Shown in pieces: positions 9,978 through 30,584 of a DNA stretch of 64,000 nucleotides. The notes beneath the pieces are model-generated. The model worked only from the letters and a program-made list of their open reading frames with translations. It was not told the DNA's origin and did not search any database. Origin of the DNA: Escherichia phage mogra; the sequence record MN850579.1; one strand, 5' to 3'. Both the position numbers and the translations under genes were made by a program. Each line of letters opens with the position of its first letter. The first letter of the stretch is position 1.

Positions 9978-12303
<2,326 letters not shown>

Positions 12304-13125
12304 TTATTGTTTTCTAGGACCAGGAGGGGTTGGTGGAGTCGGGATTGGAATATCATGAGTATAAGTTTGTTCAACTTCACCATTCCAATCTTGTGCTTCA
12401 ACGTCTCTCGGTTTAATTTCTGTATCAACTGATTCAAAAACACTGGCGGCTGTTTGAAGGTCTCGTTCATTAGCATGAAAATCAAGATAAGTCGTTTTAA
12501 TAAGGCCTTCAGCTGCGCCTACCGGAGGATACATCCATCCATTTACTTCAAATGTTAATGACCACTCTAAACGTCGACGGGATAAATTATCACCGTCTAT
12601 TTGTTCATCCATTGCTGCTGCCATCCATACGACTTTAATATCCCTTTCAAATGGAATATCCTGCCCATATTGCTCAATCATAGTCGTATTAAAATGCGGC
12701 TGAAAATATGGAATAATTTGCTCAACGATTTGGAACATATCATCTTCATAACGAGTAAAGATGCTCAGTTCAAAAATCATTTTAATTGGTGATGGGTTGT
12801 ATTGGTCTACAATATCCTTAGTCGATTTACTCAAAAGAGAGTTATTCAATATATTCGTTTTAAACGTCGGGTTATAAACGAAATCTACCATTTGGAGATT
12901 TATACGTGGTAGAATAGTTTCGACTTTAGCCACATCTTCTTGTGAGTTTATAGAGGTCCATTTATTAAGTTTCATCATAAAGTGCTCTTTAGATGCATAC
13001 GTAATAGGAACTCTAATTAATTTATTGCCTGTAGACAATTGACGGTTAACTTGGATATTTGAAAACAAATCGCCCATCATTGTGATATATCGCCTGAACG
13101 ACGAGTTGTAAAAATAGCCAAACAT
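12304..13125 (-). CDS. 15: gp15 tail sheath stabiliser / tail terminator
   Basis: About 273 aa; MFGYFYNSSFRRY... matches T4 gp15 N-terminus; second Met chosen as start. Confidence 0.9.
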   Translation of the reverse strand: MFGYFYNSSFRRYITMMGDLFSNIQVNRQLSTGNKLIRVPITYASKEHFMMKLNKWTSINSQEDVAKVETILPRINLQMVDFVYNPTFKTNILNNSLLSKSTKDIVDQYNPSPIKMIFELSIFTRYEDDMFQIVEQIIPYFQPHFNTTMIEQYGQDIPFERDIKVVWMAAAMDEQIDGDNLSRRRLEWSLTFEVNGWMYPPVGAAEGLIKTTYLDFHANERDLQTAASVFESVDTEIKPRDVEAQDWNGEVEQTYTHDIPIPTPPTPPGPRKQ

Positions 13126-13177
13126 CATTTCTCCTAACCGGCCTTTCGACCGGTGTTTGCTTTATCTTATCTATTTA

Positions 13178-13942
13178 TTAATTCATAAACCCGTCGTCAA
13201 ACGGTGAATTTTGTCTACCACGGTTGTTAACTACTACATATGGTTCAACGTATTCACTTGCCTCTGAATTGATTTGCTCAACTTCAGAATATTCATCGAT
13301 ATTAATGTCATGGATACCGTCAAGATTTCTAACAGGGTTAAGTTCCAAGTCACTAAATTCAGGTATATTGATACCTTCATTTTTCTGAAGCACCGGATTG
13401 ATTTCTTCGCCAGAGTAAATAAACTTGCCTGCAGTAATTTTACGAATCGCATTTTTACCTACTTGATAGAATGGGTCATATGGTTCAACCCAGTTAATCT
13501 CAAACAAACTGTTGTCCATTGGGAAGTATATTAAATCACCTTCCTTGGGCTCCTGATTGTTGACCTGGTGTTTGAAAAGACCCGGGTTAATAGATAATGT
13601 AACTTCGTCTTGAACTTGCATTCCGAAGTTGCTGAAGAACGATTTCGCTCCTTCATAACCTTCAAAAGAGTTCAGATATGCAGCAAATTTCCATGCTTTA
13701 GTAAATTTATTTTTAAGGTCCTCGCCAAAGATAAGGTCCACGGCAACATATTCACGTGGAACATAAAAACATTCAATACCGCGCATTTGTATGCTTTCTG
13801 CTACTAACACATCAGCTAGGGTTTGACTATTTTCGTATTTGTTGAAGTTCACGTATTTGTTTAAAATCTCGGTTTCATTAGTTTTAGAATAGCCTTCTCG
13901 GTTTTCTAACTTTGCAAATAAATTTGAATTATACGTCGACAT
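13178..13942 (-). CDS. 14: gp14 neck protein
   Basis: 254 aa in T4 gene 14 position. Confidence 0.88.
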
Positions 13943-14564
13943 AATTCCATCCTGCCCATTTAGGTTTGTTGTTTTTGCATCGGCCTATAACCGCGCTTGA
14001 TGTGATATTAAATTCTTCACCACATTCTTTGCAGGTGTTAAATATTTTACCATTTACACTAACTTTTCGAGCTGCTGGATTTTTTGAACCAGAAAAATCA
14101 GGATGTCTATGTTTGAAATCTTTCCACATTCTTGCTGTAGATTCTTTACGTTTTCTTAACCCTTCTTCAGTCCATTTTCTTGATTTTGCGGCGTCAGACA
14201 TTTTCTTTTTAGATTGGACTGAACGTTTTTGTCCTATAGATGGATTATCTTCTGGGTTAATATACGACCTTCCGCCTGCACCACCTTTAACAAGATTTGC
14301 GCAATTTTCTAAAATGGATAATTCATCTACCAGTAACTCTTCAGCTTCATCCATTAGAGCTTTAGATTCAAATGGCTTAGACCATATAATTTCTTTTATA
14401 CAAGATGGACCGTATTTTCTTTTGGCCCTTCGTATAAAGGTACCAGACCCAGTATAAGGGTCTTTTGAAGGGTCTTCGTAAACTGATTTGTGTTTACCAC
14501 CATAAATCTTTATACCGGTGGATGTTTCAAATGTTGTAATATACAATCTGTAGTATGTTGCCAT
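13929..14564 (-). CDS. GIY-YIG (Seg-like) homing endonuclease inserted between genes 13 and 14
   Basis: 211 aa; N-terminal [24 protein letters not shown] resembles Seg GIY-YIG motif, basic linker, C-terminal Cys-rich CKECG...GRCKNN; T4 has no gene here. Confidence 0.6.
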
Positions 14565-14565
14565 A

Positions 14566-15492
14566 TTAACCTACCAAAATACCTGCAGGAGGGTCTAGTA
14601 AATATAACTCTTCTCGTAAAGCTTCTTTCTCTAAACGAGCTTCTTCAATTAATCGAACACCATCAACAGTGACGCCACCGGGTAACATCATACCTTGATG
14701 TTTAGCAAGAATTTGTCCATTAAGCTCTTTAGCTAATGCAGTTGCATAATCTTTAACCCAGCGGTTGTTATATGCGCCTTGTTTAGTTGCAGGATCTTCA
14801 CCAACTCGTCGTCCGACCAAATTATGGTCTGGATTATCATAACGTTCAGAAATAGACCATGAATCACGAGGACCGACCTGACCGTACCCTACTGTATTTC
14901 CTACCATCTTATGGGTCTCGATATAAGAGCGAACATACGATTCAACGATAATGACATCTTTCTGTCTAAAGTTACCCATTACTTTTAATTGCTCGTTTGC
15001 AGAATTAAACCAAAAATCCGGAATAGGAGCAATCATATCTTGAAGCATACCCATATAAGATACTAATTGAGAATAATACCCGAGGTCAGCGCCAAAAGCG
15101 TTCGGACCGTAGAATTTACCACAATTACTACCCATACCACCTGAAACACCTGCCATTCCTAAAAGGAAATCAGTGAACCATGGATAAGTTGCATTACCAT
15201 CCATTGAAGTAATAGAGCCAACATTTGTTCTTATAATTCTTGTTACAGCAAATACGTTAGAACCACGCATATCAAATACGCCGTGACGATATTTTTCTTC
15301 GTCATCAACAAAAAATACATGGAAACCTTTATTCAACCCGTCAAAATGGTAATCGCCATAAAGTTCTAACGCTCGTGAAATACAATCATAAATTTGGTCC
15401 GTAGTTAATTCAACATTTACAATAGGAGCGCCTAAACGACGTAATATTACGTCCTTTAATTCTTTAGGGTTTTGTGCATTATAACCTGACAT
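14566..15492 (-). CDS. 13: gp13 neck protein
   Basis: 308 aa in T4 gene 13 position. Confidence 0.9.
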
Positions 15493-15503
15493 ATAAATCC
15501 TTT

Positions 15504-15519
15504 AGGGCCCGAAGGCCCT
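15504..15519 (-). other. Stable hairpin between wac and gene 13 (no T-run on coding strand)
   Basis: AGGGCC-CGAA-GGCCCT GC-rich hairpin; T-run only on plus strand. Confidence 0.4.
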
Positions 15520-15524
15520 TTTCA

Positions 15525-16973
15525 TTAAGCTGTAGGAAGTTCAACCCATGCACCATCTTTGCGAACATAGAATTTACCGTCTGAAGGAGCATCTTCAATA
15601 TATCCAGCGTCCTTAAGAGTTTGGATTTCGGCTTCTGCAGCGGCCAAATCAGTTTCAAGAGTAGCAATTCTAGAAGTTAAACTATTAATTGTCGTATCAT
15701 GACTTTTAACTGTAGGCAATATACCGCGTTCTTCAACAGTCGAACCATTTGGGTTGGTGCCATTTATAAGAGTATTTAATGTGTTTACAGAACCCTTAAT
15801 TCCTGTGGAATTAGTCCCAACATCGGTTTGAATGTTCTGAATGTCATTACTCAGCCCACCGATAGTTCCTTCGAGCTCTCGAGTACGATAAAGCAAAGAG
15901 CCGTCTGGTTCCGGTTTCCCACCTGAAGCGTCAACACCAACTACGTTATTTAACCATGACACATTAAAACGCAATCCTGACGAAGAATCAGAGCCGACAA
16001 CAGTGTTCAATGCTCCGATAGCATCAGTATTGAGTTTAATACGTCCTTGGATTGTAGTAGGCAAATCATCAGCGCCAATGGCAGTTTCTACTGTAGTCAA
16101 ACGAGGTTTAATACCACCGGATTGATTGAGCTCAAGATTAATGTCGTTTATTGCTGAACTATTCGCATTAGTTGTAGTAATAATAGAAGTCGTATTAGGA
16201 TACCCAATAGACTGTTTAATGCCATCCAAGTCAGCATTTTGACGCGACAAAGTTAAATCAATACTGGAAAGACGACTAAACACTGGAGTAGTGAAAGAAG
16301 TACGAGGCCCCATTTCTTCGCGCAAGTGTTCGACTTCAATAGTTAAAGAGCCGACGTCAGAATCAGCAAATTTAGTTTCTAAATCAGTTAATCGAACACC
16401 ATGGTCAACAATTACGGAGCTATTAGTCATAATACGGCGTTTCATACCAGTGCTATCATTTCCTGGAGTAGGAACCCCATTAATATCTTGGCCAGTATAT
16501 TGTCCTAATTCGTTTTTAATCCAAAGCAGGTCGTTACGAACCGTTCTATAAACTGAATCTGTTTCCTGATTATAAACACCAATATCATCAGTATTCGCAT
16601 CAATATGTTCATTCAAATCATTCAATTCACTAGCATGGGTTTGAACTGTGACTTTAATGACATCGATATCTTGGGTGTTCTGGCCTATCTGTGCAAGAGC
16701 ATCAACATCACCAGAAACATCTAAAATACCTTGAATAACTTTGATATCTTCATTGGCTGTATTCAAAGAAGATGCTATAGTTTTAATATTAACATCTAAC
16801 GCTTCTACGTTACGTTGAACTTCAACAATAGGACGGTTCATTACACCTTCAGAACCGTATTTTGTGTCAGCACCTGTTATTTCTTCATCGTTTTTAATCC
16901 ATTCAATACGACTCTGACCCGCGTCTGGCGGGCCGTCAACATATGGTAAATCTACCAGAGTTATATCAGCCAT
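15525..16973 (-). CDS. wac: Fibritin (whisker antigen control)
   Basis: 482 aa; N-terminus and C-terminal foldon GYIEDAPSDGKFYVRKDGAWVEL match T4 fibritin. Confidence 0.95.
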   Translation of the reverse strand: MADITLVDLPYVDGPPDAGQSRIEWIKNDEEITGADTKYGSEGVMNRPIVEVQRNVEALDVNIKTIASSLNTANEDIKVIQGILDVSGDVDALAQIGQNTQDIDVIKVTVQTHASELNDLNEHIDANTDDIGVYNQETDSVYRTVRNDLLWIKNELGQYTGQDINGVPTPGNDSTGMKRRIMTNSSVIVDHGVRLTDLETKFADSDVGSLTIEVEHLREEMGPRTSFTTPVFSRLSSIDLTLSRQNADLDGIKQSIGYPNTTSIITTTNANSSAINDINLELNQSGGIKPRLTTVETAIGADDLPTTIQGRIKLNTDAIGALNTVVGSDSSSGLRFNVSWLNNVVGVDASGGKPEPDGSLLYRTRELEGTIGGLSNDIQNIQTDVGTNSTGIKGSVNTLNTLINGTNPNGSTVEERGILPTVKSHDTTINSLTSRIATLETDLAAAEAEIQTLKDAGYIEDAPSDGKFYVRKDGAWVELPTA

Positions 16974-18556
16974 TATTTTACCTTAATGATATAGTTTAAA
17001 GAAATGTTCCACGGACGTGTTTCATTTCCAATTAATTCAGGACGATTTAATGTATATTTGGAATTTCGTTGTGATGCCGGGTCAATTTCATATCCGTCAT
17101 TGGTGAAGTATGAACGGTTATCCCAGTCAAGTCCTTTACGTGTACCAACAAAATTTGATCTACGGGTATTACCGAATGCTCCAGAATCATCATGCTCACC
17201 AAATCCGCCAGCGTGTTTATGATAAGACATCTGTTGTTTTTGCACTTCACCGACATATCCACCAGTACAACCTACACCTAATCTAGGCTTACCAAACTGG
17301 TCATTACCATTAACATTTGGATTTGTTAAGTGAGAGCCACGACCTGAGCCACGAACAAATAATCCACGCATATCAGGCAAGCCCGGGTTAGAAGAACTAC
17401 CGCCATATCGTGTCCCAATTCTGGAAGCATATACCGGACATTCTGAAGCAGAAACGGTCCCACCATGACAGAAGCGCCAATCAGAACTCGGTAAACTATC
17501 TGCAGCCCACATTGTAATAGCGCCAACTGGAAGAATTCGGTCTAATTCGTTTTGAGTCACAATACGATTGCCTTGAATATAACCACCAGTCATATTGACA
17601 TTACCAGTTATATTAGCACCACCAGAACCAACCGTCAACGTATTATTAATGCGAAGCGTGCCATTAATAGTTTGGCCGCCTCGTTGGTGGATAACATCAG
17701 CATTCCAAGCAAGGGCAGAAGAACCATCACCGCCTGATTGGCTACCCACTTGTGTAGTTAAACGAACAACTCCACGTAAAGAAGTTGTAGCACCACGTCC
17801 GTTTAATGTTGCGCCGGTCACTACAACTGAAGAGTTGTTACTATTTACTTCAGTCTGTGTCCCTAGTTTAACGACACCTTTATTACTTTCTGATGCTACT
17901 GAATTCATAAAGGTATAAGGTGAAATTGCATAGCCTTCACGCAGGGTGCCTTGTTGTGCTTGAGCAACTGTAGCCAAACGAACAACACCGGTAATAGATT
18001 CGGTGGCGTCACTATTATTTGGAGCAATTTGTGAAATAAGTTTAATTGCTAATTGTTGTGTTTTTAACGGGGTCATTGCCGTTGTATCATCAGAACCAGC
18101 TAATGCCGCAGCAGAAGTTGAAATTTTAATTACACCATTTGTTGCTTCTGTTGACACTTTTGTCTGAAATACATTGTCTATTTTTTGATTCAATTTAAGC
18201 GGAGTAATTGATGCATCGTCAATAGTTCCTGTTACTGCTTCATCTTCAGTAGCATAACGAGTTAAGCCATATTGAGTTTCGGTCGCATTAGGATATTGTA
18301 GACGAGCATTCAGTGATGCCGGAGTAACAGCTTTACTATTATCTAATCCATCAATAACTTCTTGTGGAGTAGCTATTTGAATAATTCCTGGTGTAGTAGT
18401 TGTCGCTTCCGGTACACCATTAACACCTGAAGGAGAAATAGCAGCTAATGCGGCTTGGACATTAGTGACTGTATCTGGAAAATTCGACCCCGTAGGGTCG
18501 AATTCAACGTAAATGGATTCGTTTGAAACGTGTTGGTATGTATTGTTATTACTCAT
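16973..18556 (-). CDS. 12: gp12 short tail fibre
   Basis: 527 aa, same length as T4 gp12; T4 position. Confidence 0.95.
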
Positions 18557-19212
18557 GAGGCTCTCACAAAGTGGTAGAAAACGGTAGGAGTATCATGGTT
18601 ATCAAGAGTAACCGTTTGGGCACCCAATAAATTCCATGTTCCGTATCCGGATTTTGCTTCAGACAAAATTTCTTGCGAAATTGTTACACCAAACGAAGCA
18701 TATGTTGGCAACACATGACGTTGGTTATCTAAATATGTCACCTGAAGTTTATTACCTTCAGACGGATGGTCTTTATAAGAAGAAATAGCGATTTGATTAG
18801 CAATGGCTTCTTGTAAAGCTATACGAACTTGTGCCGTTAATTCGTTATCAGTCATACCGATTGTTGCTTTAACAGCAAGTCCAAATACATTAATAACGAC
18901 CGGCGTTCCAGGGGCCAAAGTATCGTCGAGAACATCACCAGAAAAAGTCCAATAATCAACTTGTGCTGTACCTTCAGGCGATATGCCTGAAGTGTTTGTG
19001 ACAACAGTACCAATATCGGCTCGTGCCATATTATGGACATCATTTATTGCAGATTCTACGTTAGCGTCATAAAAACCGCGAGCTAACTGAGAAATAGTCA
19101 CGGAACCTACAGCTTGGTTGTTTAAAACATCAATTTGATCTGGATTTTTTCTGTAATTCAAAAAATCAGCATGACGGGAAATAACTCCCGCCTTTGTATT
19201 AAGTACAGTCAT
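18553..19212 (-). CDS. 11: gp11 baseplate wedge / short-fibre attachment protein
   Basis: About 219 aa from internal Met (MTVLNTKAG...); ORF-track start 19230 would overlap gene 10. Confidence 0.85.
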
Positions 19213-21017
19213 TATGCAATCCTTACCCAACGGTATACAGTTATAGATGGCTGAATATTAGTTATAGAACGCGCTGGAACATGAGATCCGTTAGTCTTTG
19301 CATGGTCTTCACGATATTTAGTGTAAATAGGACCTTCTTCATCCGGGTCATATTGGCAACCGCCTATAATTACTGTACCATTATCATCAGAAATAAGAAC
19401 CTTTTCATCGGTTTGTGTAGCCGGTAAATCAGCATTTTCTAATGTGACGGTTGTTACACCAACAGTACCACCTGCGGTATGAGTAGGGTTACCATTGACG
19501 TCAAGGTCATTATTATTTAATGCAAAATTAGGATCCGACGCGTCGTCATTCCAACCTGCTAATACTTTGCCTTGTCCCCAAATTTTCCACGAACCAAAAC
19601 CTAAATAAGTGGCCGGATTATTAGGGTTAACCGCATTTTCGTAAATAGTCCCGACAGGATAAATTGTATCAAATATTGCTGAGATAGTCGAGAATTCACG
19701 TTCATACTTAGGAACAGGTTCTACATTAGGCCATCCAATTTTATCGAAATCGGTTAATGCAACGTCACCAGTAATTTCAATGTTAGACCCTTGAGAAACA
19801 TATTTCTCATCAGCGACATCAAGGATTTCTTCCATTTCAAGAAGAGTTCCTAAATCGTTATTAAACCATGTGATGGTAATAATGTCTTGGTCTTCAAATT
19901 GGCGGTCAAACAGAATTGCGCTAGGGATATTATCAGTATATTCAATCGCATAATCTGTATACGATTGAGTCCATGTCCCACCGAGATTAGCGCATGACTC
20001 TTCAGAATCAGCATCCACACCTTCACAACGGAAAATAGGAGTTCCAACAGTACCAGCTAATTCTTGGAGAATACCATTGAAGCGAACTTCTAATGAATTC
20101 GGGTTAGGTGGTTCTGTAGGATTAATACCAAATGCTGTAAATGGAATAGACCTGAATGTACTCAAATCAGTAACGTAAATACTTCCATCAATAGACTTTT
20201 TAGCAGTTAATTTACTATCTAAAATGCGAACTTGGCGACGAGTATATGAACTACGCCACTGAGAAACACCGTCTAGGAATGTCTCAATTTGTACAGTGTC
20301 CCCAACATTACATGGTTGGCGTAATCTAATATTAAATCCATCAAGTGCAACCAGTTCACCAGGATTAGCGCCTGGAGAACCAAAATCACTATTATCACTG
20401 AATACATCACCATAATACAATTCGTTGCCACGATGTTTTACGCGAATGTTGTTAACGTTATAAGAGGTCCCGTTAAAAACATCCATGAAATCGGTCTGAC
20501 CTTGGGTTTCAACCAGATATTCTCTACGAGCAACATTACTAATGTCAGAGCTAACTATTTTATCAATTTGTTTGTTCTTGATGTATTCCCAACGTCCAGG
20601 AGCACAATAAACTAATTCTAAATCAGAGAACTGAACGTTAATTTCTACCGGAGATGAAGAACCTTTAATCGTATCTCCGTTTGCCGGAATTAAAGTAACA
20701 GGGTTAATGTTCCAAGTTGCAAATACGTCACGAGCACGAATAACTTTATTATAGTCTGCAATTGTCCCTTTAGGAAGATTTACCGAAACTCGCCCAGAAG
20801 TAGTATTAATTGCATAAGATTTACCCCAAGCAGCCTTAAGATTAAGACCATCAGCCGCATCATAAGTCTTCCATGCGCCAGCGGCATAAGGAACTTCACC
20901 ATCACCTAATTCATAATAGATTTCGTCAAAGTTCTCATTTATCTTTTCACCACCTCGACGAAGGTAATCGCCTTGTCCGTCATCAACGACGTTACCAATT
21001 TTAATATTTTGTTTCAT
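19212..21017 (-). CDS. 10: gp10 baseplate wedge protein
   Basis: 601 aa; T4 gp10 size and position. Confidence 0.93.
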
Positions 21018-21889
21018 TATTGAGCGACCCCAATTTTCTGAGTTGAGATAATTTTAACTGCCGAACGTAATCCAATAATATCGGATGTAATCGTCATAGT
21101 AGCAAAGTTGTTAATAATACTAAAGCTAATATTAGCAATCTCGTCGGTTTCATCTACATTACCAACTCGCATTACTGCAAATTCGGTAGAAAGAACTTCT
21201 GAGTTAATTGTATCTATTAGAATATTTATTTCGCATGTTTTTATTTTTCTACCGTCGGCGGATTGACATGTAACAAGCAATTTAGCCATGTTATAATCTG
21301 TGCGATAAAACAGAGGAATAGAAACTGTGTTTCCTGTAAGACTCCAAGTCCCATCAACAGGAGATTCTTTCTGCCCAAACATGCTATCAGTAGAATAATT
21401 CCATACTGAAGTTGGCCCATTAAGTTCAACACAACGAAGAACAACATGGGTATAAGGGGTGGAAATAACAAGATTATTAAGAACACCTTTAATCGAACCA
21501 TCGGTTACTTGGATACTTAAAGGATTGTTAACAGAAATAGACCCATTAGAGTTTATGAATTCTACAGAGTCACCTAATTCAGGACGGTCAATAATAACAA
21601 TCACACCGCCATCAGAAGCATCAATATCATGCATGGTGCCTGGTTTAATAGGAGTTTGATAATCGGCCGCCTTTCCTTTTTGATAATAACCTGTGGCATG
21701 AATAGTTTGACCTGTAGGTCCGGTTCCATCTGCTACAGCCATTTTACGTTGATCGCCAAATGCATTGTAAATAGCGTTGATATCGTCATTTATTTTATTA
21801 CCACCGTCGAATAAGATATCACCTGTTGAGGCATTACCAATTTCGCCGGTATCGATTAATTGTTTAGGAGTTTGCTTAAAAAATGCCAT
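21017..21889 (-). CDS. 9: gp9 baseplate wedge / long-fibre socket
   Basis: 290 aa; T4 gp9 size and position. Confidence 0.92.
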   Translation of the reverse strand: MAFFKQTPKQLIDTGEIGNASTGDILFDGGNKINDDINAIYNAFGDQRKMAVADGTGPTGQTIHATGYYQKGKAADYQTPIKPGTMHDIDASDGGVIVIIDRPELGDSVEFINSNGSISVNNPLSIQVTDGSIKGVLNNLVISTPYTHVVLRCVELNGPTSVWNYSTDSMFGQKESPVDGTWSLTGNTVSIPLFYRTDYNMAKLLVTCQSADGRKIKTCEINILIDTINSEVLSTEFAVMRVGNVDETDEIANISFSIINNFATMTITSDIIGLRSAVKIISTQKIGVAQ

Positions 21890-21922
21890 AATTCTGCCTT
21901 TTGTTGTCCGATATTATATTCT

Positions 21923-25900: not shown

Positions 25901-26057
25901 TGGCAGGGGGAATTATTTCCCCGTCTGCCGTTTTAGTCTCAGCGATTTCTACGAAATAGTAGAAATTAGCACCAACGTCATCCCAGCGTATTTGAACTTG
26001 GTTAGCGGACAACTTGGATATTCTGAGACTTGTGACTGCTGGCGCTTTTACTGTCAT
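22959..26057 (-). CDS. 7: gp7 baseplate wedge protein
   Basis: 1032 aa, same length as T4 gp7. Confidence 0.95.
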   Translation of the reverse strand: MTVKAPAVTSLRISKLSANQVQIRWDDVGANFYYFVEIAETKTADGEIIPPASYRWINLGYTPNSSWFESSLDPLTSYIIRVSTAAEGFERSDWVYTEIFESFQTNAYTFQHMIEMQLANTFIREKFTNNNMSYVDFNNDTIMAALMNESFQFSPAYADISSIKNFIIGENEYHEIQGSIQQVCHDINRVYLMESEGILYLFERYQPVVKVSNDKGQTWKSVKLFNDRVGYPVSRTVYYQTGYTTYVLGYDKLFYGRKSTDVRWSADDVRFSSQDITFAKIGDQLNLGFDVEIFGNYASLPANVSRIAEAIVCNDDYVYVAARDKVRFIKTSNAPIDSDPLSPTYSERLFEQETFNITGNPKAVCYKMDSVGGKIFALIIGEVVNLNDDPRTTPIVDSADKGVYVLDHDAGTFKRVFGNTEEERRRIEPGYTSMSTDGVELSISSSNFKFLESDIVDDPKTQIKYGLIGAVKYEYPREWLADKHYHMMAFISTEDSQWESFTPQPMEYYAEPFFSYSRKSGTRCWINNSDKAVVIYSDLLYTKVIENHPLSSSDREVHEYWKDGDCTIVMPNVDFTGFKKYASGMIFYKSSGEIISYYDFSYRVRDNVSIIWKPTNIFLTASLQNQEKDTTWTPVEENGIADPDLRPLLTTMMPESYLLDNTNFEAFCEAYIQYLSDGYGTHYNNLLNLIKNQYPREEHAWEYLWSEIYKRNIYLNAEKRDLVSRFFESRSYDFYSTKGTEASYKFLFKVLYNEDVEIEIESSSGTEYDIIIESDSLTEDLVGQTIYTATGRCNVTYIERSYSKGKLQWTVTIHNLLGRLIQGQEVKAERLPGFEGEIVRGIKGKELSQNNIDYINRGRAYYVMKIKSKLPSSRWKSDVLRFVHPVGFGFIAITLLTMFINTGLTLKHVETIINKYKNYKWDSGLPTKYADRVAKLDPQGNVEFDPITGKAIYEIGPMAGQDYPLPEDYNAENNNSIFQGQLPSERRKLMSPLFDASGTTFSRFRDLVEQRLIDNVGNPRDPVNPPQVKLDE

Positions 26058-28027
26058 TGTGAAATAGGCTCCAAATCTATAGTTAAGTACTGAGGACGTA
26101 AGTCATTTTCGAATACGATTAAAGAACCATCCTTTGTAAAAATAATATCATCTGCAGGGTCGGAATAAAGTTCAATTGTTTGAACTTCAAAACGGTCTGA
26201 AGTGAGGTCAATTTTAGCAATGTTCCAATAAATCGAATCGGCAGGATAATTCACTTCACCAATTGAATAGTATTTGTTTCGTCCGTCAGTAACAGTAAGT
26301 TTATTAAAATCATTACCTGTATAAGGTTGTATATTTTCGTTTTCAACAACATCACCGTCCGCAAATGGACCAATAATAACTTGACCTATGCCACGGTCAT
26401 TACGGTCAGAAGATACTATGCGAACACCATATTTAATAGTTTCGTTTGCATTTTCTGGATTAGGTCTGTGCGAATCAAACGAGAATATATTAGATTCCAT
26501 CGATCTATCTTTAATCTGATTATTGTATTTAATACCGGCCTCAGGCGTTTTATAGAAGTTTTGTACTTCGCGAACCATTTGAATAGTAGCTGAAGAACCA
26601 ATAATAGAAATATCTGCATCATCGACATAAGTTAGCATTTTAGATTTTGCAAACGATGAGTTAAAAATTTCTACATCTTCAATATAATATCGGTCAATTT
26701 TATTAATAATTTGCCCTTCAAGATATTGCTCTGATTCTTGAAGTTTATTCAACGCGTATGTAACTTTGATATTCATTTTGATAAACAAATAATCAGGCGA
26801 AATAACAACAGGTGTAATAGTCCCTAAGTTATAATCATTCAAATAGTTTTTGATATCATCACGTTGGACAGAAGTCAAATACAATCCAGATTTAGGCTTA
26901 GCAGCAATATATGCGTACCCTGGTTTAGATGAATCTGTGAATGTTTGAACCGCCTGAATAATAGAACCAAACCGCTCAGAAACGAATGTGTCATAGTCGG
27001 AAGCGGTTACACAACGTTGTTGAGTTTCGCGTTTAATTGTGCCTAATTCGCGGATACGTTCAATATCTTCAGGGTCACCACCGCCGTCGGCCCCAACAAA
27101 GTCTGGGTTATTGCTAGGGTTCTCATTAATATCTATTACCGTGATATTAGCTAATGTATCAGCATAAGAAAATCCTACAGCACCGTTAGCATCTGCGCCA
27201 TTAGTAGAAATATACTCAATTACGATTTTAGAACCCTGAACAGGTTTAAGGCCACCAATATAGTTAGATGTTAACGCACCTTCTGACGTGTTAATAGAGA
27301 TTTCGCCTTCACCAAAATAAAATTCGGTGTTCCCATCAACTGTTTCACGCATATAATAGATTGTTGACGTAGAACCAGCGTGAACCATCGACTTACGAGT
27401 CCAGTTAATCCATTCTGCTCCGTCAACATACAACTTAACCAAATTACGGTCAATATTCTTATCACGAATAATGATAGGTTTTAATCTATCAAATGTTAAT
27501 TCAGTGCGAACAATACGTCCTTGAGCTAATCGAAGACGTGGAAAATATTGGTTATTTTTGTCTTTAACTACAATGACATCTTCAGTAGAAACAAAGTTAT
27601 ACGGGTTAACAGAAGTATCTTTAGCGTATGCTAAGAAACGAGTGCCACGTGGAATGGTGATATAGTTTCTATTTAATGCATCCGTACATGTGAGCATAAT
27701 TTCTGTTTGTGCTGCTGATTTAGATGAAGGCAGATATCCGTTATCTTGAGCCGCTTGTACAACAGAACTACGCAAGTTTGCAGTACGCATAAAACTTTCA
27801 TATACTGCACTATTACTGAACTGTTGGATGTAAAGAGTGTTATATGCTAAAAGGTCACACAATACGTTTAAGCGTGAACCTTCAAAATCATAATCAAGAA
27901 ATTCATTCTGCCCATTGAGCCATTCAATAATGTTCTGTTTGATTTCGGCAAATGTGCCCCCGATAAAAATCTCGGGAATAGCATTCGCTGTTCGGGTTAA
28001 TTGATAATTTACAGGAGTGTTTGCCAT
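26054..28027 (-). CDS. 6: gp6 baseplate wedge protein
   Basis: Start set at internal Met (MANTPVNYQLTRTANAIPEIF...), matching T4 gp6 N-terminus; about 657 aa. Confidence 0.93.
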   Translation of the reverse strand: MANTPVNYQLTRTANAIPEIFIGGTFAEIKQNIIEWLNGQNEFLDYDFEGSRLNVLCDLLAYNTLYIQQFSNSAVYESFMRTANLRSSVVQAAQDNGYLPSSKSAAQTEIMLTCTDALNRNYITIPRGTRFLAYAKDTSVNPYNFVSTEDVIVVKDKNNQYFPRLRLAQGRIVRTELTFDRLKPIIIRDKNIDRNLVKLYVDGAEWINWTRKSMVHAGSTSTIYYMRETVDGNTEFYFGEGEISINTSEGALTSNYIGGLKPVQGSKIVIEYISTNGADANGAVGFSYADTLANITVIDINENPSNNPDFVGADGGGDPEDIERIRELGTIKRETQQRCVTASDYDTFVSERFGSIIQAVQTFTDSSKPGYAYIAAKPKSGLYLTSVQRDDIKNYLNDYNLGTITPVVISPDYLFIKMNIKVTYALNKLQESEQYLEGQIINKIDRYYIEDVEIFNSSFAKSKMLTYVDDADISIIGSSATIQMVREVQNFYKTPEAGIKYNNQIKDRSMESNIFSFDSHRPNPENANETIKYGVRIVSSDRNDRGIGQVIIGPFADGDVVENENIQPYTGNDFNKLTVTDGRNKYYSIGEVNYPADSIYWNIAKIDLTSDRFEVQTIELYSDPADDIIFTKDGSLIVFENDLRPQYLTIDLEPISQ

Positions 28028-28035
28028 TTTAATTC

Positions 28036-28329
28036 CTATTTTATAAAGACTTTTGACGAGGCCTGAGAAACAGTATCCCCGCATGAAATTGGGTCAGCCA
28101 TTTGAACGGCCTTTTTACCGGTGACGTATACTTTAGATGTACGAGGTTCAGTAACACCTCCATGAGTCTCGTATGGTTTTTTAATTTCTGTATGAGGTGT
28201 TATTTGGTCTCCTGCCACAAGAACAGGAATACCGCCGGTGAACACTTTAGATTGGGAAGCATTTATTACAGTAGGAGGCCATGCTTCATGGCCTGTTGTA
28301 ACGCACTTGTCGTAACTTAAGCCAGACAT
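28036..28329 (-). CDS. 5.4: gp5.4 PAAR-like spike tip protein
   Basis: 97 aa from internal Met (MSGLSYDKC...), matching T4 gp5.4 length; between 5.1 and 6. Confidence 0.8.
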
Positions 28330-28331
28330 TT

Positions 28332-28847
28332 TCACGGCCTCACATAAACATAGTTTCGTAATTGTTGAGCCCATTTGCTCCAATTTCCTACTATAGTTTT
28401 TGTATAAACCTTAGTAAGAGTTTTTTGTACTGGAGCCGGTGGAGGTTCTGTACCAGAGTCACTTCTAGAACCGCCTGATGAACTTTCTTCTTGGTAGTTA
28501 TAAATCATTTCAACCGTATAACTAAACACTTTACGAAGATTCTGAGGAGCTCTCCACAAATATAACTGTGTGGATTCATCTTTTGGTAAATCATCCCATG
28601 AAGATGCGGTTTCAAAATCATCATTTAATCGGTATTTCAATGCGTCCGAAGAAAAGCTAAACACACTTTCATATGTTCCATATAAACGATTACCATCTAC
28701 CGTAATGCCTTGTGTCGGTTCATAATCTGTTATATTTATTGACACTAAAGTTTCGGTTGTTTCTAACTGTGGAGTAAAAAGGACGTCAATAGACGCCCCT
28801 TCCATGTCTTCTCCTAAGTCGGTATTTAAAGGAAGTATTTGTGCCAT
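28332..28847 (-). CDS. 5.1: gp5.1-like protein
   Basis: 171 aa ORF immediately downstream of gene 5. Confidence 0.6.
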
Positions 28848-28850
28848 ATA

Positions 28851-30584
28851 TTACCCAATATCAATACGAGATCCGTCAACAGTGTATTGTCCTGAAGCTA
28901 CTGAGCTCATTGTAGACATTGTTTCTGCCCAATCCCCGGCAACAGTCATGTCAACATTACCATTAACAGTCCATTTAACGTTTCCGTTGACGGTGTAATC
29001 ATGATTCCCTTCGACCTGAGTTTTAGCATCACCTTTAACAAGAATATCTGCATTTCCGTCAACAACTATTTTGATATTACCCTTAACGTAAAGAGTTCCA
29101 TCGCCTTCAACAGTTTTAGCTTGGTTACCACGAATAAAGATTGTGTCATTGCCGTCTATTTGATGGAGGCGGTCTGCCATGTTATAATATATTTCATTAG
29201 CACCAACGTTAACAAGCTTATCGCCAGAAATCAAGAAGTTCCCATCACCATTAGTGATGTCAAAAAGGTCTTCTACAGTTTTACGAGTACGACGCCCAGA
29301 CGGAGAAACTTCCTCATATGACCCTGTTGGATGAACTAAGCGATAACGTTCATTACCTGGAGTATCGTCAAATTCTTGGATATGACCACTTTCTGTTTCC
29401 ATAGCATGAACATATGGGTACTCACCACGATAACTTGATTCCGGTTCTTTAAAAAGGATGCGTGAATCTAATGGAACAGGAGGACCAGCCGGGTCTTCTG
29501 AATCGGTATTTCTAGTAACTAAATCGGCACCAACTCCTGGTGAAGGCGGTGTTTTAACAGGAACACCGTATGATTCCATGTTACCAGTTAAAATAATTGT
29601 TGTTACACGTGAAGCGCGTCCTTTAGTCTGTTGGAACCATAATGAATCGCGCCCAGATTTGTATGCAGTTTTCCAATCGCCTTCGGCCATTGCTTTAAGC
29701 ATAGTATTGAATTTTGCTACACCACCAACGCCCATTTGGAAGCACATGTTTTCTAATGCCATTTGGCGAGATCTGTTCATTTTAGCATAAACAGGACCTA
29801 CTTTAGAATTAGAACGAATGTCTTTCTGCATCTTAGCAAGGTCCTTCTCAAATAACGCTGTTGCTTCTTCTAATGTAATAGTTCCGGGATTTCCTGTTAC
29901 TTCACGCCCTACTTGATCAGATAACAATTTATTAATTCGAGACATATCTCGGGTCTTTTCCATTACGATAAGGTGTCCAATACCTACTGTAGGATACCCG
30001 AGATGGTCCCAATACACTTTATCACGAAGACCTTCGTCACGACGTAACATTTCTGTTATTGTAAAATTAGGGTCATCATCTTCTGGAATATTTGCTAAAT
30101 CTGTATCGTCTGGGTTTATACCATAATCCAAGTTGTTATCTTGAATTACGTTAGAGTTCGAATAATAACCAGCTTCACCACCTTGGTTTAATACGTTCGT
30201 ATCATTACCTAAACGTCGCGGATACTGGCCTGTCGGGTCTGAAAAACCTTCAAGTCTATTAGGCTTTTCACGTACAATTCCGCCATATGTACCAAGTACA
30301 ATTCCGTTTGTTTTCCATTTGTCTAAGAAATGACCATATACTCGAGTTCCTTCAACAGGACCTGTAACAGAACCACCAATACCTGACATTGATGCAGACG
30401 TAATAGGTTGAATAACAGTCATCCATGGAAGTTTTTCTGTAGGAATACCCTGCACATCGCCTTGTACTCTCTGTGCGGGATGAAGCCCAACTACTCGCAC
30501 TCGAACTCGCCCTTGTTTTAATGGGTCCATTCTGTCCTCGACAACACCCACGAACCAATTAAGGCTACTGCTAATCATTTCCAT
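28851..30584 (-). CDS. 5: gp5 baseplate hub / tail lysozyme
   Basis: 577 aa; central T4-lysozyme-like domain and C-terminal beta-helix repeats (VKGNIKIVVDGNADILVKGDAKTQVEGN...). Confidence 0.95.
   Translation of the reverse strand: MEMISSSLNWFVGVVEDRMDPLKQGRVRVRVVGLHPAQRVQGDVQGIPTEKLPWMTVIQPITSASMSGIGGSVTGPVEGTRVYGHFLDKWKTNGIVLGTYGGIVREKPNRLEGFSDPTGQYPRRLGNDTNVLNQGGEAGYYSNSNVIQDNNLDYGINPDDTDLANIPEDDDPNFTITEMLRRDEGLRDKVYWDHLGYPTVGIGHLIVMEKTRDMSRINKLLSDQVGREVTGNPGTITLEEATALFEKDLAKMQKDIRSNSKVGPVYAKMNRSRQMALENMCFQMGVGGVAKFNTMLKAMAEGDWKTAYKSGRDSLWFQQTKGRASRVTTIILTGNMESYGVPVKTPPSPGVGADLVTRNTDSEDPAGPPVPLDSRILFKEPESSYRGEYPYVHAMETESGHIQEFDDTPGNERYRLVHPTGSYEEVSPSGRRTRKTVEDLFDITNGDGNFLISGDKLVNVGANEIYYNMADRLHQIDGNDTIFIRGNQAKTVEGDGTLYVKGNIKIVVDGNADILVKGDAKTQVEGNHDYTVNGNVKWTVNGNVDMTVAGDWAETMSTMSSVASGQYTVDGSRIDIG

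Follow-up and report, generated by a model that had tools for sequence, protein, structure and literature searches.

Several endonucleases of phage T4 provide a framework for the gene considered here, a 211-aa open reading frame (ORF) between neck genes 13 and 14 of Escherichia phage mogra (MN850579.1). The activity of SegC is proven, whereas the 211-aa enzyme is known here from its sequence. T4 SegD has been reported to exclude co-infecting relatives without driving its own transfer. Intronless homing with marker exclusion and co-conversion has been experimentally demonstrated for T4 SegF and SegG (cited in PMC2993671 and PMC2988022), and T4 segC, segF, and segG have been described as promoter-less cassettes (PMC2988022).

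SegC and the 211-aa enzyme have a common three-part layout (198 versus 211 aa; 33% identity over aa 4 to 197), with a GSG..AIKKYG signature, a NUMOD3 linker, and an I-TevI-type helix-turn-helix (HTH) in both proteins and the Arg27 helix in neither. Both genes are promoter-less cassettes that overlap a neighboring gene within an existing transcription unit (PMC2988022). They differ in their sites (5.1/5.3 for T4 SegC versus 13/14 for the 211-aa enzyme) and in the position of the first tyrosine, which is found 13 residues before the YIG tyrosine in the 211-aa enzyme and 11 residues before it in SegC. The possibility that the gene is an orthologue of T4 segC was rejected on the basis of the 33% identity and the different locus.

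The footprint expected from the SegF/SegG mechanism, which consists of presence/absence among close relatives and linked substitutions in the adjacent essential gene, was seen at 13/14. The targets of SegF and SegG are genes 56 and 32, whereas at 13/14 we infer the mechanism from comparative data only. I-TevI, the td intron endonuclease (PDB 1LN0/1MK0 and 1I3J), is intron encoded and has a linker zinc finger and an Arg27 helix, whereas the 211-aa enzyme is free-standing and has neither feature (identity, ~20 to 25%). No report of cleavage or homing for the 13/14 endonuclease family was found in the searchable literature.

The same junction is occupied in Phi1 (Krischvirus) by a gene annotated in 2007 as 'SegC', which also overlaps the gene 14 start and encodes a similar tail (..STAEKWKEFYYV). 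This gene has been described as a phi1-specific homing endonuclease gene that is absent from RB49 (PMC2839356). The Phi1 protein is 29% identical to the protein in the window (the window being the whole 64,000-nucleotide stretch of mogra DNA that was analyzed) over all three segments, and it thus represents a different Seg lineage. Unlike that of the window protein, its first motif is canonical, and the insertion of its gene follows the intergenic spacer instead of coinciding with the gene 14 ATG. Upstream of Phi1 segC (L016:1134-1199) there is a promoter-like TTGACT-N17-TATGAT that overlaps an inverted repeat (GTTCTCGT...ACGAGAAC); this arrangement resembles the phi1 and RB49 cassettes (PMC2839356), whereas the window endonuclease has nothing comparable. 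Domain shuffling with Phi1 SegC, in which the two enzymes would have the DNA-binding domain in common but exchanged nuclease domains, was also considered and rejected, as the identities of the C-domain (26 to 35%) and the N-domain (27 to 30%) showed no contrast.

Gene organization and expression at the 13/14 junction

The initial annotation had placed a 211-aa ORF between genes 13 and 14, and its coordinates were exact; the ORF is on the minus strand (Table 1). The ORF is free-standing between genes, abutting gp13 and gp14 and lying outside any intron. It had been said to overlap both neighbors. The overlap with the gene 14 start was confirmed (14 nt), but that with the gene 13 stop was not, as the coding strand at this boundary reads TAA, T, ATG, which leaves a 1-nt spacer. 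T4 has no gene between 13 and 14, as previously stated, only a 1-nt gap, and the published T4 endonuclease table contains no entry at the 13/14 site (PMC2988022). The product of the downstream gene matched the Pfam T4_neck-protein model at 2e-127.

TABLE 1 Features of the endonuclease insertion and its flanks in the mogra window
Feature	Position	Strand	Evidence
Gene 13 (neck protein, head-tail adaptor), 308 aa, upstream flank	14566..15492	minus	T4 gp13 identity 85%; PHROG 211 4.2e-43
Former gene 14 start (GGTAGGTTAAT + ATGGCAACATAC = MATY), left insert edge, now the endonuclease's	14553..14580	minus	Empty-site comparison
Seg-like homing endonuclease ORF, 211 aa, ATG start	13929..14564	minus	ORF call
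Predicted N-terminal GIY-YIG catalytic domain (aa 1-100)	14265..14564	minus	Y8 + Y21 in hairpin, GSG...RA..KYG Seg signature, E75, N90
Linker with NUMOD3-like motif (aa 105-123), no zinc finger	14196..14252	minus	PF07460 E 0.0026, under cut-off
Predicted C-terminal I-TevI-type helix-turn-helix DNA-binding domain (aa 157-208)	13941..14096	minus	PF20987, PDB 1i3j
Replacement gene 14 start in the endonuclease's last codons: AGGA, 7 nt, ATG	13940..13953	minus	Direct sequence reading
Diverged 5' gene 14 tract (nt 4-48), linked to the endonuclease: putative co-converted and/or cleavage-immune allele	13895..13939	minus	Fixed differences
Gene 14 (neck protein, head closure), 254 aa, downstream flank	13178..13942	minus	T4 gp14 identity 87.5%

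The ORF is not a chance frame, because it is present at 99 to 100% protein identity in 12 phage records and has homologues at 55 to 64%. Its product matched PHROG 314, 'homing endonuclease', at 5.5e-37, and the only PADLOC models that it matched were those for homing endonucleases (HEase). The gene is an ordinary Seg-like homing endonuclease gene, of the selfish kind typical of T-even phages, and is already annotated as such in GenBank. An antisense ORF of 163 aa (13966-14457, plus strand) was considered spurious because it was unconserved in homologous loci.

The base composition of the endonuclease gene gave no signal of foreign origin (GC content, 36.2% compared to 38.1% for the window). 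There was no second copy or paralogue in the 64-kb window, within which tblastn with T4 SegC matched only the 13/14 endonuclease, and no Seg-like gene was found at 26054-30584, the region of the gp5-gp6 homologues that corresponds to the T4 segC position, 5.1/5.3. Rfam searches of region 12500-16500 yielded neither a group I intron nor any other RNA family at an E value of ≤1.

On the coding strand, the region from 9985 to 21922 did not contain the late-promoter consensus TATAAATA, and sigma-70-like sites were not above chance. [quoted passage not shown] The endonuclease gene is a promoter-less cassette located in the late block formed by wac, 13, and 14. A GC-rich palindrome, AGGGCCCGAAGGCCCT (15504-15519), is present in the short stretch that separates wac (fibritin) from gene 13; it was flagged in the terminator scan on the non-coding strand only.

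Domain organization and predicted catalytic residues

The 211-aa protein has the modular I-TevI/Seg layout, consisting of a predicted GIY-YIG nuclease domain at the N terminus, a NUMOD3 linker, and a predicted HTH DNA-binding domain at the C terminus. In direct profile scans, only the back half of the protein was recognized by Pfam. The I-TevI_DNA-bd model (PF20987) matched aa 159-204 with an E value of 9.9e-5 and a score of 22.6 bits, under the cut-off of 27, and it matched 13 of 14 homologues, with a best E value of 1.6e-10. The family profile matched the structure of the I-TevI DNA-binding domain (1i3j) with an E value of 2.3e-5, and structural matches in the fold comparison supported the C-terminal HTH domain. 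The initial annotation had described this part of the protein as a Cys-rich element (CKECG...GRCKNN). That description was not sustained: the stretch aligns with the HTH subdomain of the I-TevI DNA-binding domain (PF20987), and a zinc-finger reading was rejected because only C181 is conserved among C178, C181, and C196 and four ligands are never present. The NUMOD3 model (PF07460) was matched by 13 of 14 family members, and the linker region had low pLDDT in the structure model.

Direct scans with Pfam and NCBIfam yielded no match to the catalytic domain, and the GIY-YIG model PF01541 had no match at an E value of ≤10 in the window protein or in 13 homologues. The initial annotation had named such an absence as grounds for refuting its proposal, but it is too weak to refute a GIY-YIG assignment, because the experimentally proven T4 SegC also scores under the cut-off of this model (18.8 bits compared to 22.6). 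The family profile search retrieved distant relatives with PF01541 that aligned over 90% of the query. When the N-terminal 104 residues were compared by hhalign with T4 SegC and five PF01541-positive proteins, the probability was 99.2% (E value, 8e-20), and it was 98.7% when I-TevI was included. The structure model, which was built from 12 sequences and is of moderate quality (pLDDT, 76.8; pTM, 0.42), predicts a catalytic domain with a three-stranded sheet and helices, and its fold matches that of the I-TevI catalytic domain. The proposed Seg-like GIY-YIG N terminus is therefore upheld by profile-profile homology and by the fold match, although the GIY-YIG model itself failed on all 14 proteins.

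Residues E75 and N90 of the window protein align with E75 (the metal-binding Glu) and N90 (a structural Asn) of I-TevI and are invariant in 14 sequences. Y21 aligns with I-TevI Y17; it is the YIG tyrosine, is found in I-Y-G-G, and is invariant in the family. The GIY tyrosine would be expected 11 residues before Y21, but this position is occupied by T10 (Thr, Ser, Val, or Ile in the family), and an invariant tyrosine, Y8, is located 13 residues before Y21. This spacing reflects either a hairpin with 2 additional residues or an altered GIY motif. In an exhaustive search, a YR(T/L)Y motif at -13 or further was common to 22 of 143 cluster representatives, with variable hairpin lengths and varied C termini. 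This distribution favors a longer hairpin, with Y8 as the putative catalytic tyrosine, over a dead enzyme. The Arg27 helix of I-TevI aligns to a gap in the window protein, as it does in active T4 SegC. Residues K24, R25, and H26, which follow the YIG motif and vary little or not at all, are candidates for the conserved Arg role.

The same unusual N-terminal motif (YRTY..YAGKR) was found with a different C terminus in the 269-aa protein P0018 (L020:4001-4810), whose gene is located on another T4-like contig between nrdD/nrdG-like and gp47/gp46-like genes. The association of this motif with another C terminus indicates that the nuclease module has been combined with other DNA-binding tails at other sites, and the different locus of P0018 suggests that the module is mobile.

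Takeover of the gene 14 start

The insert is 622 bp long and is located directly after codon 4 of gene 14. When the window was compared with the empty gp13-stop/gp14-start regions of F27, FP43, BEU50, and mar007P3, the sequences were identical through ATGGCAAC, and the corresponding region of T4 was near-identical to the window at the left insert edge. In the comparison with the empty site of F27, identity extends over the gp13 stop, the spacer, and ATGGCAAC, with divergence after codon 4. Thus, codons 1 to 4 of the endonuclease (MATY) are the original codons 1 to 4 of gene 14, and the endonuclease takes the old ribosome-binding site and ATG of gene 14. The ATG at which gene 14 restarts lies within the C-terminal codons of the endonuclease (..GGCAGGATGGAATTATGTCGACGTATAA; protein, ..GWNYVDV-stop). 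Because the endonuclease sits on the gene 14 ribosome-binding site and ATG and encodes the replacement Shine-Dalgarno (SD) sequence and ATG, only exact excision would be expected to restore the essential neck gene.

Related endonucleases in other genera are arranged in a similar manner. The codons for the KW.xW.Y tail carry the gene 14 SD sequence and ATG in MX01, SP18, RZ, G5211, phT4A, and KpF2. In Slopekvirus, the ATG of the endonuclease likewise stands in for that of gene 14 and is preceded by the same GGAGGAAAA. An intergenic hairpin is interrupted by the insert in Krischvirus. The 36-nt spacer that separates genes 13 and 14 of RB49 (L018:1134-1169) contains a perfect hairpin, GGGGGAGTATTCCCCC, and in G5211 (L005:1769-1785) the endonuclease ATG comes after GGGGGAGTATT, so that the insertion took out the second arm of the hairpin.

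Distribution among close relatives and a co-conversion-like tract

Comparison of the 13/14 junction in relatives, as had been recommended, revealed the gene in 12 of ~153 records at ≥90% DNA identity (~8% of Mosigvirus-level relatives). The carriers were F2, 308Ecol101PP, NicPhage, JM10, moskry, S143_2, JQD51, VIPECOMC06, RPN187, phiEC1, SQ17, and the RefSeq copy of F2. Their gp13-ORF-gp14 segments were 98 to 99% identical to the window, and their authors had annotated the product as a putative, homing, GIY-YIG, or intron-associated endonuclease. In the ~140 further records, mostly Mosigvirus, the neck genes matched at 95 to 98% in two pieces, and the junction was cleanly uninterrupted (gp13 stop, 1 nt, gp14 ATG), with no insert. 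The carriers are a minority among genomes that are otherwise 95 to 99% identical. The nearest homologue outside Mosigvirus was only ~64% identical, which places the donor of the cassette outside current sampling. The record closest to the window, F2 (L002, MN864145.1), is assigned to Tequatrovirus in the GenBank taxonomy; its neck region is 95 to 99% identical to Mosigvirus records and only ~85% identical (protein) to T4.

Over the 1693 nt of genes 13 plus 14, comparison of four carriers with four non-carriers gave 14 fixed differences, every one of them in gene 14 nt 4 to 48, directly downstream of the insert, with none elsewhere. Ten were silent, and four resulted in amino acid changes (A2S, D5N, K6S, and G16E). 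When the first 90 nt of gene 14 were used as the query, only the 12 carriers were ≥95% identical, and the remainder were ≤82% identical. In the flanks, the similarity between carriers was no greater than that between carriers and non-carriers. Among carriers, there were 1 to 3 differences in the 684 nt of the cassette, compared to 13 to 31 in 928 nt of gene 13 and 8 to 15 in 705 nt of the remainder of gene 14. The diversity of the cassette was thus 5- to 10-fold below that of its flanks, whose diversity among carriers equaled that across the whole genus.

A similar pattern was apparent in two other genera. The Slopekvirus phages KpF2 and KP27 had only 3 differences in 927 nt of gene 13, and in gene 14 the count was 22 for nt 1 to 60, 8 for nt 61 to 120, and ~1 per 60 nt thereafter. 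In Krischvirus, ~49 differences separated G5211 from RB49 over the initial ~150 nt of gene 14. A linked tract together with a low-diversity cassette is the signature of homing with co-conversion, and that signature recurs in Slopekvirus and Krischvirus. Such a footprint would be expected if repair of a double-strand break copies the gene together with a short stretch of flanking DNA. Among Mosigviruses that do not have the endonuclease, 31 polymorphic sites were present in the 120 nt at 13792-13911 (gene 14 nt 32 to 151), closely downstream of the insertion point, compared to ~2 per 60 nt elsewhere. This polymorphism hotspot may be what remains of earlier break-induced exchanges.

The same junction in other genera

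The initial annotation considered the insertion to be specific to this lineage. That view did not hold, as the same endonuclease family was found at 13/14 in five genera: in addition to Mosigvirus, these were Dhakavirus (MX01), Gaprivervirus (SP18 and RZ), Krischvirus (G5211), and Slopekvirus (phT4A and KpF2). The gene was present in 16 of ~112 Slopekvirus records and 3 of ~58 Krischvirus records. The SP18 homologue is named 'segC' in GenBank, a name that reflects best-hit naming only. The codons for LFA(K/R/Q)LE were the only stretch common to the empty junctions of all genera.

The Krischvirus junction differs by isolate, with a G5211 type (L005:1768-2430), a Phi1 'segC' type (L016:1134-1784; 194 aa), and a MIZ5 type (L017:1134-2002), whose 271-aa endonuclease has several NUMOD3 repeats; in RB49 and most other Krischvirus isolates, the junction is empty. 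Counting the family described here, the Phi1 type, and the MIZ5 type, the 13/14 junction has been colonized independently by at least three Seg lineages. The homologue in the Krischvirus phage Brandy (L021:1051-1694) has a 1-nt deletion in an A-run, with a frameshift at about codon 18, and the record annotates a 141-aa remnant. This frameshift represents either gene decay or a homopolymer sequencing error.

Probable homing at the 13/14 junction and alternative explanations

The most probable explanation, to which we assign a probability of roughly 80%, is that the gene encodes a free-standing Seg (GIY-YIG) homing endonuclease, of a family specialized for the 13/14 junction, in Mosigvirus (RB69-like T-even phage). 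A free-standing homing endonuclease that probably targets the uninterrupted junction was proposed at the outset, and the presence/absence polymorphism and the tight co-conversion-like tract support that proposal. The enzyme probably targets the conserved beginning of gene 14, within its first ~50 nt. Late in a mixed infection, the enzyme would bind the conserved gene 14 start (codons for ..NLFAKLEN..) of a genome that does not have the gene and would cut near this start. The carrier genome would then serve as the template for recombinational repair, by which both the endonuclease gene and the neighboring tract would be copied (intronless homing with co-conversion). Protection of the carrier allele would come from the insert, which divides the site, and from the 14 mostly synonymous substitutions, which change it.

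It is also conceivable, although unlikely, that the gene is an inactive relic, a former homing endonuclease that is kept because it provides the only ribosome-binding site and start codon of gene 14, so that imprecise deletion would be lethal. The start-codon takeover, with the gene 14 start embedded in the endonuclease, fits this explanation, as do the non-canonical first motif, the missing Arg27 helix, and the lack of a PF01541 match, and the 1-nt deletion in Brandy, with its frameshift after codon 18, shows that decay occurs unless it is a homopolymer sequencing error. However, the ORF is intact in 12 of 12 Mosigvirus copies, and E75, N90, Y8, Y21, and ~55 other positions are invariant across homologues that are only 53 to 64% identical. 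The odd first motif is common to a populous subclade with many C termini (the 22 of 143 representatives noted above), and a low-diversity cassette on varied backgrounds points to recent spread rather than passive retention.

A second alternative is that the gene is an ancient vertical resident, present at the junction in the common ancestor of the genera, and that the empty sites are precise secondary losses. Long residence is compatible with the similar identities between genera of the endonuclease (49 to 62%) and gp13/gp14 (50 to 69%), and the position and overlap architecture are alike in all five genera. Yet the empty sites are seamless, in agreement with one another and with T4, and each loss would have needed to bring back the original 5' allele of gene 14 at 14 positions. 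In addition, the endonucleases of MX01 and SP18 are 58% identical compared to 88% for gp13, and those of phT4A and KpF2 are 74% identical compared to 99% for the flanks; these mismatches, in which the endonucleases are far more diverged than their surroundings, argue against simple vertical descent. The low diversity of the Mosigvirus cassette relative to its flanks also counts against vertical residence, which we consider very improbable.

There is just as little reason to favor a competition or exclusion nuclease that cuts co-infecting relatives without homing, or a regulatory DNA-binding role like I-TevI autorepression, given that the PADLOC matches were confined to homing-endonuclease models and that the tract transferred along with the gene and the low diversity of a cassette found on varied backgrounds show that the gene itself has moved, with the qualification that exclusion and homing can coexist and are not mutually exclusive.

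Implications

T4 has neither the homing endonuclease family described here nor an endonuclease at this insertion site, and both are missing from the reviewed list of T4 endonucleases. The Pfam GIY-YIG model misses the whole subclade, and automated surveys will therefore undercount such endonucleases. From the comparative data, the first ~50 nt of gene 14 emerge as a likely target, along with a putative resistant allele, and the locus offers a clean natural example of a co-conversion tract that is replicated in three genera. More tentatively, the start-codon takeover might be a conserved retention device in five genera and the 13/14 boundary a recurrent hotspot of endonuclease-driven recombination, a proposal that we regard as possible rather than probable. 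If it is true, the 13/14 boundary would shape neck-gene mosaicism across Straboviridae.
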